Source: a virus
Lineage: Duplodnaviria > Heunggongvirae > Uroviricota > Caudoviricetes
IMG/VR virus record: IMGVR_UViG_2713896784_000026
Length of the DNA stretch: 7,004 nt
Reading direction: 5' to 3' (one strand)
This document shows positions 3,362-7,004 of this stretch, in pieces. The position numbers were made by a program, and so were the translations under genes. The notes beneath the pieces are model-generated. The model did not search any database. It was not told the DNA's origin and saw only the letters and a list, made by a program, of their open reading frames with translations. The stretch's first letter is position 1. Every line of letters begins with the position of its first letter.

Positions 3362-3640
3362 TTAGGGAAACTGGCGTCTTGCGTGGATCACGTTTACTAC
3401 TTCAACGCTTGATGTTGTTACGCGGTATAGAATTATATAGTTAGGGTGGGCTACAATCTCACGCAAGCCAGGTACTCTGTCGCTTGGTGGGTATAAATAC
3501 GGATGTTCGGATAACGGCAGCACACAACCCCTTAATCGCTGCCATAAGCGTTCAGCCGCATCTATGTCGAAACGAGCAATATAACTAGTTATATCATCTA
3601 GGTCGGTATCTGCGCTTTCAAGCCATAACACGGGTAACAT
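3362..3640 (-). CDS. parE2: ParE-family type II toxin (92 aa; ParE2-like)
   Basis: The translation from the internal ATG at 3640..3638 (MLPVLWLESADTDLDDITSYIARFDIDAAERLWQRL...YIILYRVTTSSVEVVNVIHARRQFP) has the RelE/ParE-fold pattern. That ATG lies 1 nt after the TAA of the upstream antitoxin gene, indicating coupling. The 124-aa track ORF from 3736 would overlap the antitoxin gene out of frame and is rejected. Confidence 0.85.
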   Translation of the reverse strand: MLPVLWLESADTDLDDITSYIARFDIDAAERLWQRLRGCVLPLSEHPYLYPPSDRVPGLREIVAHPNYIILYRVTTSSVEVVNVIHARRQFP

Positions 3641-3641
3641 T

Positions 3642-3833
3642 TTACTGCTTGCTCCGTTCCTTGCGCATCTTAGCAAAGCGTTCTGCCATTCTGCGCTCAA
3701 CTTCGTCATGGGGAATTGCTGGGCGCGGATCTGCAAGGCTCGTTGCTACTTTCGCACGCAGCCATTCGTTGTAACTGTTTTCTTGTTCAATGGTTTCAAA
3801 TTCAGAAACCATTGGTGAAAGGGCTCTATTCAT
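3642..3833 (-). CDS. paaA2: Small highly charged antitoxin (63 aa), PaaA2-like partner of ParE
   Basis: ATG at 3833..3831 preceded by a strong SD (minus-strand reading CCGGAGGAAACATG). The product MNRALSPMVSEFETIEQENSYNEWLRAKVATSLADPRPAIPHDEVERRMAERFAKMRKERSKQ is 63 aa, matching the length I recall for PaaA2. Sits immediately upstream of parE. The track's longer 81-aa form lacks an SD. Confidence 0.75.
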   Translation of the reverse strand: MNRALSPMVSEFETIEQENSYNEWLRAKVATSLADPRPAIPHDEVERRMAERFAKMRKERSKQ

Positions 3834-3853
3834 GTTTCCTCCGGTTTTATAAC

Positions 3854-4225
3854 TCAGGCGCGGCGGCATTTTTGCGCCGCAATCCATCTCGCTATGAGAT
3901 CTTCCATTGATTCTTTTTTCTGCTTTAACTCGCTGATTATCTGGCGTTGCTCATCCTCAGGGAAGGCTGAAAAAATCTGCAATAATTCCAGTTGATTAGA
4001 CGTTAACCCTGCATGTGGTGGAGAACCCCCCGGTTGTTCTGCGTATTCCGCATCCAGATACCCTTCCGGCATCCCGTATGTTTGCTCTATTCTTCTGGCA
4101 GCCTTTTCTCCAAACGAGGCTCTCCCACTCATTAGTTGAGATAGGTAGCTCTTCTCTTTGGGTGGCAGAGTTTTATCTTTAAACCACTCCTTGAGACGTA
4201 AACGGCGAATTTCTTTTTTTTGCAT
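3854..4225 (-). CDS. paaR2: HTH (Cro/CI-type) transcriptional regulator, PaaR2-like; occupies the prophage repressor (CI-equivalent) position and is first gene of the TA operon
   Basis: N-terminal HTH (KSYLSQLMSGRASFGEKAARRIEQTYGMPEGYLD). The C-terminal part resembles DicA-type repressors (SNQLELLQIFSAFPEDEQRQIISEL). Divergent from the Cro-like gene. Start placed at ATG 4225..4223 (123 aa): the GTG at 4288 used by the track would extend the protein across the operator region. There is no SD before 4225, consistent with a leaderless mRNA. Confidence 0.7.
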   Translation of the reverse strand: MQKKEIRRLRLKEWFKDKTLPPKEKSYLSQLMSGRASFGEKAARRIEQTYGMPEGYLDAEYAEQPGGSPPHAGLTSNQLELLQIFSAFPEDEQRQIISELKQKKESMEDLIARWIAAQKCRRA

Positions 4226-4322
4226 GTGGTAATTATCTTTAGTAATCACTAAACAAGCAAATACTTGACTTAATGGTTTATTAAACACTAAACTCGCAAA
4301 AAAACACTAAACCGAGGAAGGT
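4226..4322. promoter_or_regulatory. Divergent promoter/operator region between the repressor-like gene and the Cro-like gene
   Basis: Three 18-bp sites with conserved right half ...CACTAAAC: 4237..4254 CTTTAGTAATCACTAAAC, 4276..4293 GTTTATTAAACACTAAAC, 4295..4312 (right half only). Rightward promoter: -35 TTGACT 4265..4270, -10 TAAACT 4289..4294, then SD GAGGA 4314..4318 and ATG 4323. Leftward promoter: -35 TTGCTT (complement of 4255..4260), 17-bp spacer, -10 GATAAT (complement of 4232..4237), which puts the start about at the ATG at 4225. Confidence 0.55.
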
Positions 4323-4625: not shown

Positions 4626-5014
4626 AAATCAAGCATGAACACATCCGCATGGCGATGAATGTCTGGGCGCATCCGGACGGCGAAAAAGTACCGGCTGCGA
4701 AAATTACCAAAGCGTATTTCGAGCNNNNNNNNNNNNNNNNNNNNNNNNNNNNNNNNNNNNNNNNNNNNNNNNNNGATAAAGACACCCCTGATGCTGTTGA
4801 AAAAATGCAGGCTCTGTTACCGGCGATCGAAAAGGCGATGCCGCCTTTGCTGGTGGCCCGTATGCGCAGCCACAGTTCTGAATATTACCGTGAGATCGTC
4901 GAACGGAGGGATCGGCTGGTGAAGGATGTCGATGATTTTGTTGCGTCAGCGGTTGTTTTGTATGACCAGATGAATCGCGGCGGCCCGGCAGGGAATGCTG
5001 TGGTGATGCACTAA
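4622..5014 (+). CDS. ydaT: YdaT-like protein (130 codons; proposed CII-like regulator / toxic when overexpressed); internal 50 bases are masked N
   Basis: MKIKHEHIRMAMNVWAHPDGEKVPAAKITKAYFE...; translationally coupled to the ydaS-like gene. The frame is continuous across the N run only if the masked length is true to the original. Confidence 0.65.
   Translation: MKIKHEHIRMAMNVWAHPDGEKVPAAKITKAYFEXXXXXXXXXXXXXXXXXDKDTPDAVEKMQALLPAIEKAMPPLLVARMRSHSSEYYREIVERRDRLVKDVDDFVASAVVLYDQMNRGGPAGNAVVMH
4725..4774. other. Run of 50 ambiguous bases (N) inside the ydaT-like gene
   Basis: Read directly. Confidence 1.
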
Positions 5015-5036
5015 AAGCACGGTGTTCGGGGGTTTT

Positions 5037-5999
5037 ATGAGCAGCAAGCTTCATGGTCTTGTCTGGGAAGGGTGCGCCTTCACCGGCATGATCTTATCCA
5101 GGGTGGCGGTTATGGCCCGTCTTGCAGACTACAGCAATGACGAGGGCGTGTCATGGCCTGCCATTGAAACTATCCGGCGTCAGATCGGTGCAAGAAGTGA
5201 ATCCACAGTGAAATCGGCTATTGCAGAACTGGCGAAAGAGGGCTGGCTGACGAAGGAAGAGCGTAAGGTCGGTGGGCGTAATGTAAGCAATATCTATCGG
5301 CTTAATGTGGAAAAACTCGAAGCAGCTGCTGCGGCGGCGCGTGAGTCATATAAACCGAAAAGAAAAATTAGCCCGGCAAAAAATGACCCGTTAACAGTTG
5401 CCCCGTCAAATATTGCCCCCTCAACGGTTGACCCGTCAAATTTTGATGGATCAACTGTTGATAACAAACTGCCGATTAGGGGGGCGATGATTGACCCCGA
5501 TCCGTCAGTATTAAAACCTGATCCGTCAGATAAAAGATCTTCTTGTCCGGACGCTTCGCAACCGGACCCGCAGACGGCTGAACAGAATTTTTTAACCCGA
5601 CACCCTGACGCGGTTGTGTTCAGTGCGAAAAAACGCCAGTGGGGAAGTCAGGAAGATTTGGTGTGCGCACAGTGGATCTGGGGACGAATCGTGAGTCTTT
5701 ACGAGCAGGCGGCCAGCGATGATGGCGAGATCACGAGACCGAAAGAACCCAACTGGACTGCATGGGCCAATGACGTGCGGACAATGCGGATGCTGGATGG
5801 CAGAACTCACAGACAAATTTGTGAAATGTTTGGGCGTCTCCAGCGGGATTCGTTCTGGGTAAAAAACATCATGAGTCCGGCAAAACTCCGGGAAAAATGG
5901 GATGAACTGGTTATCCGCCTGGGGCGTTCGCCCGCGCAGCGTTGCGTGAATCACATTTCTGAACCGGACACTGAAATACCGCCGGGATTCAGGGGGTGA
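5037..5999 (+). CDS. Phage replication initiation protein (lambda O-like): N-terminal wHTH DNA-binding domain, repetitive Pro/Ser linker, C-terminal domain
   Basis: ATG 5037 preceded by GGGGG with a 4-nt spacer; the track starts at GTG 5022. The N-terminus (RLADYSNDEGVSWPAIETIRRQIGARSESTVKSAIAELAKEGWL) is typical of replication-initiator HTH domains. It sits immediately upstream of the DnaC-like gene, as in lambdoid replication modules. Confidence 0.7.
   Translation: MSSKLHGLVWEGCAFTGMILSRVAVMARLADYSNDEGVSWPAIETIRRQIGARSESTVKSAIAELAKEGWLTKEERKVGGRNVSNIYRLNVEKLEAAAAAARESYKPKRKISPAKNDPLTVAPSNIAPSTVDPSNFDGSTVDNKLPIRGAMIDPDPSVLKPDPSDKRSSCPDASQPDPQTAEQNFLTRHPDAVVFSAKKRQWGSQEDLVCAQWIWGRIVSLYEQAASDDGEITRPKEPNWTAWANDVRTMRMLDGRTHRQICEMFGRLQRDSFWVKNIMSPAKLREKWDELVIRLGRSPAQRCVNHISEPDTEIPPGFRG
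5386..5460 (+). repeat. Five tandem imperfect 15-bp repeats (consensus about aCCCgTCAAnnnTTG) inside the O-like gene; candidate iterons or coding linker repeats
   Basis: acccgttaacagttg / ccccgtcaaatattg / ccccctcaacggttg / acccgtcaaattttg / atggatcaactgttg. They are followed by two copies of GATCCGTCAG (5499..5508 and 5520..5529) in a more AT-rich stretch. Confidence 0.7.
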
Positions 6000-6005
6000 C
6001 GTGTC

Positions 6006-6746
6006 ATGAAAAACATTGCGGCAGTTGGGGTTCTTGAACGTATTCGCAGACTTGCACCACAGGGGGCGGTTCCACCGTACCGGACGGTGGAGGAGTGGCG
6101 GGAATGGCAACTTGCTGAAGGACGAAAACGCAGCGAGGAGATTAACCGCCTGAATCATCAGGTGCGGGTTGAAAAAATCCTGAACCGTGCGGGCATCCAG
6201 CCGCTTCACAGGAAGTGCTCATTCGGGAACTACCGGGTGCAGAACGACGGTCAGCGCCATGCTCTGAGCCAGGCGAAATCCATTGCCGATGAATTGATGA
6301 CCGGATGTACAAACTTCGTGTTCAGCGGTAAACCTGGTACCGGTAAAAATCACCTGGCAGCAGCGATTGGCAATCGGCTGATGGCGAAGGGGAGAAGCGT
6401 GATTATCGTCACCGTGTCCGATGTCATGAGCGTGTTGCATGACGGCTACGACAACGGCCAGTCCGGGGAAAAATTTTTACAGGAGCTTTGTGGAGTTGAC
6501 CTTCTGGTCCTTGATGAAATTGGCATGCAGCGGGATACGCGCAACGAGCAGGTCACGCTGAACCAGATAGTCGACCGCAGAACGGCTTCGATGCGTAGTG
6601 TCGGAATGCTGACGAACCTGAATCACGCAGCGATGAGCACACTCCTCGGAGATCGGGTGATGGACCGTATGACCATGAATGGTGGTCGTTGGGTGAATTT
6701 TAACTGGGAGAGCTGGCGGTCAAACGTTGGACGTCAGGGTATGTGA
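6006..6746 (+). CDS. DnaC-like replicative helicase loader (IstB-like AAA+ ATPase), 246 aa
   Basis: Walker A GKPGTGKNHLAAAIG and Walker B LLVLDEIG. Begins 7 nt after the O-like stop. Same length and position as the Rac prophage ydaV gene as far as I recall. Confidence 0.85.
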   Translation: MKNIAAVGVLERIRRLAPQGAVPPYRTVEEWREWQLAEGRKRSEEINRLNHQVRVEKILNRAGIQPLHRKCSFGNYRVQNDGQRHALSQAKSIADELMTGCTNFVFSGKPGTGKNHLAAAIGNRLMAKGRSVIIVTVSDVMSVLHDGYDNGQSGEKFLQELCGVDLLVLDEIGMQRDTRNEQVTLNQIVDRRTASMRSVGMLTNLNHAAMSTLLGDRVMDRMTMNGGRWVNFNWESWRSNVGRQGM

Positions 6747-6771
6747 GAATTTTTGACGAGGTAAATTTTCG

Positions 6772-7004
6772 ATGGAAACTGTATTGCATGCACTGAAAGC
6801 GATGGGAAAAGCCAATTCTGTTGAACTGGCGGCGCGGCTTGATATCAGCCGTGAAGAAGTTCTTAACGAACTGTGGGAACTCAAAAAAATGGCGTTGTTG
6901 ATAAAACGGGTCACACCTGGTTTCTGGCTGTCGAAGGTGAAGCCGGGGTAACCGAAGGGCAGGCACTACAACCTGAAGCGCCGGATGTGGTAACCGAAGA
7001 GGTC
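6772..7004 (+). pseudogene. Winged-helix DNA-binding protein gene with reading frame broken at an A7 run (6883..6889); continues past the right edge
   Basis: From ATG 6772 the frame encodes a clean HTH ([39 protein letters not shown]) but continues with rare codons (TTG TTG ATA AAA CGG) to a stop at 6949. The -1 frame after the A-run has good codons and a plausible wing ([24 protein letters not shown]...) and stays open to 7004. Not in the ORF track (below its length cut-off or truncated). Confidence 0.45.

Follow-up and report, generated by a model that had tools for sequence, protein, structure and literature searches.

YdaW is treated in the literature as a predicted prophage transcription factor, and its length differs among strains (PMC9308461). 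When overexpressed in a screen, ydaW of Escherichia coli K-12 blocked a retron toxin (bioRxiv 10.1101/2020.06.22.160242). Intact genes of this DUF1627/YdaW family are carried by Rac-like and lambdoid prophages (for example WP_000450876.1 and YdaW of phage Rac-SA53), where they follow O/P- or DnaC-type replication genes and precede DUF977/LygF. The stretch of DNA analysed here (the window, 7,004 nucleotides from the virus record IMGVR_UViG_2713896784_000026) ends inside a gene that occupies this same position. On its 5' side lie a RelE/RelB pair, a cI-like gene, a Cro-like gene, a YdaT-family gene, an O-like replication gene and a gene for a DnaC-like loader; on its 3' side are a DUF977 (LygF-like) gene, a DUF551 gene and hokD. 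The gene thus stands after prophage replication genes and before a DUF977/LygF gene, as the intact members of the family do.

Many E. coli O157:H7 chromosomes contain the last 305 bases of the window (6700-7004) with 100% identity, and the Sakai annotation assigns the locus to 'prophage Sp12, lambda-like phage'. Both the integrase and the repressor of Sp12 are disrupted in Sakai; the prophage also has several morphogenesis defects, and its excision, replication and packaging were not seen (PMC2669165). An intact DUF1627/YdaW paralogue is present in another prophage of the same O157:H7 genome. In RefSeq, the locus appears in EDL933 and TR01 as a 770-nt CDS for a DUF1627 domain-containing protein, classed as a pseudogene with the note 'frameshifted' (locus tags EDL933_RS12290 and EEL45_RS11115). 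The Sakai record annotates the downstream frame only, as ECs_2274, a protein of 222 aa starting at the GTG at 6873 (CDS 1602-2270 of the Sakai segment). The frameshifted state is therefore already flagged in public annotation; a literature search (Sp12 frameshift; ECs2274) found no paper on this frameshift.

Several other features of the window were recorded. The RelE/ParE-RelB toxin-antitoxin pair (3362-3887 and 3854-4288, both on the minus strand) adjoins the cI-like repressor gene, which PGAP calls a 123-aa hypothetical protein; a disrupted repressor is reported for Sp12 (PMC2669165). On the minus strand at 2108-2146 there is a match to the Rfam DicF RNA (RF00039; 51.8 bits for a gathering threshold of 48). 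It covers positions 14-52 of the 52-position model, and the 5' portion of the RNA would fall under the adjoining N run at 2147-2200 (54 bases). The second N run of the window, at 4725-4774 (50 bases), corresponds to a segment of about 83 nt in EDL933, PV15-279 and DEC5B, and because of this 33-nt alignment offset window coordinates 5' of it are not collinear with public records. Within the O-like gene (5022-5999), position 5401 is a C in the window and an A in Sakai, EDL933, PV15-279, DEC5B and O103:H2, a single substitution. In the O55:H7 strain DEC5B, the orthologous DnaC-like loader gene is itself a pseudogene with an 'internal stop' (segment 2664-3404, corresponding to window 6006-6746), an independent decay event in the same prophage.

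Reading frames and the intact protein

An earlier note on this DNA had proposed that a helix-turn-helix frame opening at ATG 6772 is broken at a run of seven A (A7) at 6883-6889, and both the translation and the sequence bear this out (Table 1). The zero frame from ATG 6772 comprises 59 codons and stops at TAA 6949-6951. The product of its codons 1-39 is identical to residues 1-39 of the intact orthologues. The -1 frame contains stops 5' of the A7 run and is open from the run to the end of the window; this ancestral frame extends for a further 538 nt beyond the window, to the DUF1627 domain, and stays open for 217 codons after the break. Codon usage was scored against weights that we computed from ten prophage genes nearby. 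Codons ahead of the A run scored 0.78, the zero-frame tail, which contains ATA and CGG, 0.60, and the -1 frame across the tail stretch 0.86. Control windows of 20 codons gave 0.75 +/- 0.07 in frame and 0.68 +/- 0.08 for stop-free off-frame stretches. The description of rare codons past the run in one frame and good codons in the other was thus qualitatively right. The A7 run alone is not unusual, five such runs being observed in the window for 3.8 expected. The 59-aa product had no match in Pfam, and a scan of 6500-7004 for promoters and terminators found none.

Table 1. Features of the split DUF1627/YdaW-family gene (window coordinates).
Feature	Position	Strand	Remarks
Shine-Dalgarno-like GAGG	6758..6761	+	putative ribosome binding site, from sequence reading, 10 nt before the ATG
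DUF1627/YdaW-family codons 1-39, original frame	6772..6888	+	encode helices H1-H3 of the N-terminal winged helix
GTG in the downstream frame	6873..6875	+	where the Sakai annotation begins ECs_2274 (222 aa)
A7 run	6883..6889	+	site of the one-base deletion relative to A8 of intact orthologues
Continuation of the ancestral frame (-1 relative to the ATG)	6888..7004	+	wing hairpin and acidic linker, from translation
Out-of-frame tail	6889..6951	+	20 codons and stop TAA 6949-6951, from translation
Direct repeat GGTAACCGAAG, copy 1	6947..6957	+	11 bp, codes for VTE in the linker
Direct repeat GGTAACCGAAG, copy 2	6989..6999	+	11 bp, 42 nt 3' of copy 1

Thirteen orthologous copies were compared across the A run. 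Six of them carry CTCAAAAAAAATGGC, that is eight A (A8), within one 771-nt ORF, and carriers of this intact form include O103:H2, RM14516, phage PhiR5_2 and phiSTEC1589. A7 was found in the O157:H7 copies only, and the remaining non-O157:H7 copies, which read AAAAGAAAT, AAAAGAAAA or AAAAAGGCT at the run, each still have a single ORF. More distant orthologues, in which the run is interrupted, keep the fused protein ELK[KR][NKA]G[VF]VDK, and in the fused frame of 20 family members residues N32-K38, G41 and V43-K45 are invariant at the junction. Since the fused protein is kept though the run varies, selection acted on the protein and not on the A run. Counting the As in orthologues from related prophages, a check suggested in the earlier note, therefore gave A8 or an interrupted run with one ORF, and A7 in O157:H7 only. 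The prediction that one added A would restore a single ORF is shown directly by the A8 orthologues (771 nt, 256 aa).

In the intact A8 orthologue, which is 256 aa long, residues 91-245 match Pfam PF07789 (DUF1627) with 327 bits for a cut-off of 28.1. The downstream frame taken from EDL933 matches the same family with 332 bits, the domain itself lying beyond the end of the window. About 2,240 clusters at 90% identity match the intact protein, and among the 120 listed most are 251-256 aa long. In PHROGs the intact protein falls in phrog_630, with no function assigned there. Searching the PDB by sequence with the intact protein returned insignificant matches only (best E = 0.029), and in Pfam residues 3-52 gave HTH_11, DeoR and Crp-type matches, all of them sub-threshold.

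The fold was examined with an AlphaFold2 model of a 98%-identical orthologue, based on a 20-sequence alignment. The model as a whole has a mean pLDDT of 51 and a pTM of 0.26 and is confident for residues 1-52 only (pLDDT about 85), where it places helices at 4-11, 16-23 and 27-39 and strands at 13-15, 43-46 and 49-52. This predicted structure supports a winged-helix topology for the N-terminal part and backs the proposal of a wing-like hairpin after the A run, strands 43-46 and 49-52 forming the wing. Comparison with the PDB by Foldseek gave rmsd values of 0.9-2.2 A across about 50 residues with many winged-helix domains, its neighbours being Z-alpha, ArsR-type AntR, IclR, Csa3 and FeoC. The E-values were weak (at least 0.05) because the confident domain is short, so that the winged-helix assignment rests on topology and rmsd. 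The layout that we propose for the intact protein begins with the winged helix, continues through an acidic linker into a second helix-turn-helix-like module and closes with a helical C-terminus. On the predicted fold, the frame breaks behind Lys39, where the recognition helix H3 ends and ahead of the wing. A single polypeptide of about 253-256 aa combining winged helix, linker and DUF1627 is found in the orthologues and not in the window copy, which is by descent a pseudogene member of the DUF1627/YdaW family and not an intact one. A further copy of the gene, with 82.5% DNA identity, is present in PP818812.1 (10084-10796), named 'Actinobacillus phage vB_Apl-pPE4', a host that is unexpected for a Rac/lambdoid module.

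The 11-bp direct repeat GGTAACCGAAG reported downstream of the run is real, with 0 matches expected in shuffles, and its copies encode V-T-E in an acidic, proline-rich linker between the two helix-turn-helix-like modules. The repetitive C-terminal region that it was taken to hint at is not supported. There are two copies only; Tandem Repeats Finder detected no array in the whole gene, and a repeat search of the gene returned only short two-copy matches. Within the alignment this linker varies most, and it is modelled with low confidence (pLDDT about 30).

Polarity and fixation of the deletion

O55:H7 DEC5B and O157:H7 PV15-279 both carry this prophage with an intact gene, which encodes WP_000450876.1. 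The prophage was recognized as the same because its RelE, RelB, repressor fragment, Cro-like protein, DUF977, DUF551 and HokD have identical accessions. Over the whole gene (771 nt), the O157:H7 pseudogene differs from either strain by one missing A only, and this one-base indel lies at the break; both strains thus provide a close orthologue with an uninterrupted ORF. The 2.1 kb located 5' of the gene contain one substitution relative to DEC5B and four relative to PV15-279. In the stepwise model of O157:H7 emergence, O55:H7 corresponds to CC A1, and beta-glucuronidase-positive O157:H7, to which PV15-279 belongs, corresponds to CC A5, from which typical O157:H7 (CC A6) arose (PMC6256406). As A8 is present in CC A1 and CC A5 strains, the deletion dates to the A5-to-A6 branch.

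We then determined the length of the run in 5,426 complete E. coli genomes, using exact flanks of 40 nt and 30 nt (a 77-mer in the case of A7). A7 was found in 287 genomes, coming from many laboratories and including Sakai and EDL933, and A8 in 164, among them O26, O103:H2, O121:H19 and O55:H7 strains. A9 occurred in a single genome (strain MBT-5) and A6 in none of the 5,426. When 26 of the A7 genomes were sampled, every one whose record names a serotype was O157:H7. The A7 copies examined in full (EDL933, Sakai and TR01) are identical, and 330 records were listed at 99% identity or above. The presence of A7 in 287 assemblies and of A8 in strains of the ancestral type fits the phylogeny and indicates a genuine allele. 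A phase-variable (contingency) locus would show polymorphism of the tract within a clonal lineage; such polymorphism was not observed, since the sampled A7 genomes with a serotype were all O157:H7 and A8 was found in other lineages or in other prophages. Judging from these sequences, A7 is one inherited mutation and not a flickering tract. Strain MBT-5 has three copies of the gene, and the one with A9 (segment 830-1601) is annotated 'frameshifted'; its ninth A stems either from a separate insertion at this hotspot or from an error in the assembly.

We consider it very probable that the window carries an ordinary frameshift pseudogene, produced by an A8-to-A7 deletion that is fixed in typical O157:H7 and inherited clonally. 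Among the options listed in the earlier note, a genuine pseudogene is the one that agrees with the intact A8 orthologues, with the restriction of the change to one lineage and with the 'frameshifted' flag in RefSeq. The ancestral A8 read CTC AAA AAA AAT GGC (L K K N G). One A was lost, most likely through replication slippage, on the branch leading from beta-glucuronidase-positive to typical O157:H7, and A7 has been transmitted by clonal inheritance since then. Translation from ATG 6772 now leaves the frame after Lys39, adds 20 unrelated residues and terminates at 6949-6951. This removes the wing and all of the other 217 codons, those of the DUF1627 domain among them, and with them, presumably, the function of the gene. 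A frameshift in an accessory gene of the multiply defective Sp12 is the outcome that neutral decay predicts.

Alternative readings of the split gene

The A7 allele could be rescued adventitiously, in the manner of a 'pseudo-pseudogene', if RNA polymerase inserted an additional A or if tRNA-Lys slipped by -1 on A_AAA, and if the small amount of full-length protein so produced still mattered. Either event would restore exactly the orthologous ...ELKKNGVVDK. In E. coli, A/T runs are sites of transcriptional insertion, the frequency of which grows exponentially as the run gets longer (PMC5574713), and the rescue of frameshifted genes at A runs is on record (PMC1088944). However, Baranov et al. regard 8 A as non-slippery and 9 A as slippage-prone (PMC1088944), and the run here has only 7. 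As to the ribosome, in E. coli, Z_ZZN tetramers deprived of a stimulator are close to background (0.147% vs 0.112%), and A_AA.A is the weakest of six pseudoknot-responsive tetramers (PMC4066793). Folding of the 101 nt from the run onward was no better than that of shuffles (z -0.63), and a trace product is redundant beside the intact paralogue or paralogues of the same genome. We therefore regard a meaningful rescue as improbable; a trace of full-length protein is physically possible, and nothing points to its selection or significance.

A related view is that the A7 allele is not fully dead, rare +1A transcripts, -1 slips or the 59-aa three-helix fragment providing a low-dose or altered YdaW-type activity. 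We see only a slim chance of this. If it were true, the residual activity might modulate host defence, as the result obtained with K-12 ydaW in the retron-toxin screen would allow, and selection might have tolerated or even favoured it as the lineage arose.

The split could also reflect evolved programmed recoding, in which a -1 frameshift or programmed slippage controls how much short helix-turn-helix protein is made relative to the full-length one. An A-rich slippery stretch decoded by tRNA-Lys coincides with the point where the frame changes, and 217 codons of the downstream frame are still open. Against this, the split ORFs are restricted to one clonal lineage, the sister prophages having A8 or an interrupted run and one ORF; the homologues thus share neither a conserved slippery motif nor a two-ORF organization. 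The slippery sequence A_AAA_AAT that had been put forward is not a heptamer in the zero frame, which is phased CTC_AAA_AAA_ATG. This phasing offers C_AAA_AAA or A_AAA_ATG and no canonical X_XXZ_ZZN heptamer, so that a -1 slip would have nothing but the tetramer A_AAA to work on. The search for a stimulatory structure was negative: the segment 6880-6980 folds at -27.6 kcal/mol (z -0.63 vs shuffles, pseudoknots left out) and the nearest downstream stem has 4 pairs. A strong Shine-Dalgarno-like sequence was not seen 10-14 nt before the run. As for programmed slippage, which uses about 9 A/T of conserved length (PMC1088944), the run has 7 A here and 8, or an interruption, elsewhere. Programmed frameshifting or slippage was consequently rejected for lack of conservation, wrong phasing, lack of downstream structure and a run that falls short of published thresholds (PMC4066793, PMC1088944), and the suggestion of a slippage site in the earlier note is not supported; we give programmed recoding very little credit.

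Equally hard to sustain is the idea of two functional products, the 59-aa fragment acting alone and the DUF1627 part being translated from GTG 6873 or from internal ATGs. The Sakai annotation does contain a 222-aa protein starting at this GTG, and PHROGs holds separate profiles for an N-terminal piece of 59 positions and for C-terminal pieces. However, neither GTG 6873 nor the internal ATG ATG is preceded by a Shine-Dalgarno-like sequence at a usable distance. The wing is missing from the 59-aa product, whose last 20 residues are out of frame and encoded by poor codons. Moreover, the 59-position profile, phrog_16668, covers the frameshift product end to end. This profile scores 138 bits with the frameshift product and 98.8 bits with the intact protein (positions 1-54), which suggests that it was built from a truncated out-of-frame annotation and not from a natural short protein.

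Lastly, a sequencing or assembly error at the homopolymer of the source record, which the earlier note had envisaged and for which one may invoke the frequent misreading of homopolymer length by some chemistries and the lone A9 record of MBT-5 as a possible instance, is refuted to near certainty by the exact A7 77-mer of 287 complete genomes from many laboratories (Sakai and EDL933 included), by the scarcity of neighbouring lengths (A6 absent, A9 in one genome) and by a run state that tracks phylogeny, with A8 in O55:H7 and beta-glucuronidase-positive O157:H7.

Significance and comparison with described systems

As an ordinary frameshift pseudogene, the locus has little importance beyond annotation hygiene and brings no new recoding biology. 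It offers a clean and datable example of decay by homopolymer indel in the defective prophage pool of O157:H7, and the A7/A8 state is usable as a minor lineage marker. The break also propagates into databases, in the form of the 222-aa GTG-start protein of Sakai and, apparently, of one PHROG profile.

With the programmed -1 frameshift sites of E. coli dnaX and IS911/IS3 (A_AAA_AAG with stimulators), the locus shares A-rich lysine codons and a downstream frame in -1. It differs from them in that it has no canonical heptamer, no detected Shine-Dalgarno or stem-loop/pseudoknot stimulator (pseudoknots being left out of the folding) and a split that is not conserved (PMC4066793). The 9A/9T pseudo-pseudogenes rescued by transcriptional slippage (Baranov et al. 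2005, PMC1088944) also result from a one-base indel in an A run, their ORF is intact in another strain, and an indel in the run at the mRNA level would restore the ORF. The direction of the change is opposite, however, since the pseudo-pseudogenes lengthened from 8A to the slippage-prone 9A, whereas the window gene shortened from 8A to 7A, below the length for efficient slippage.

Once one A is restored, the window gene encodes the same protein as the intact DUF1627/YdaW genes of Rac-like and lambdoid prophages (PF07789, 327-332 bits), which differ from it by an A8 or interrupted run and a single ORF of 253-256 aa. EDL933_RS12290, EEL45_RS11115 and ECs_2274 are the same locus as that of the window, 770 nt long with A7. 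What differs among them is the annotation, the downstream frame only in Sakai and a frameshifted pseudogene in PGAP.
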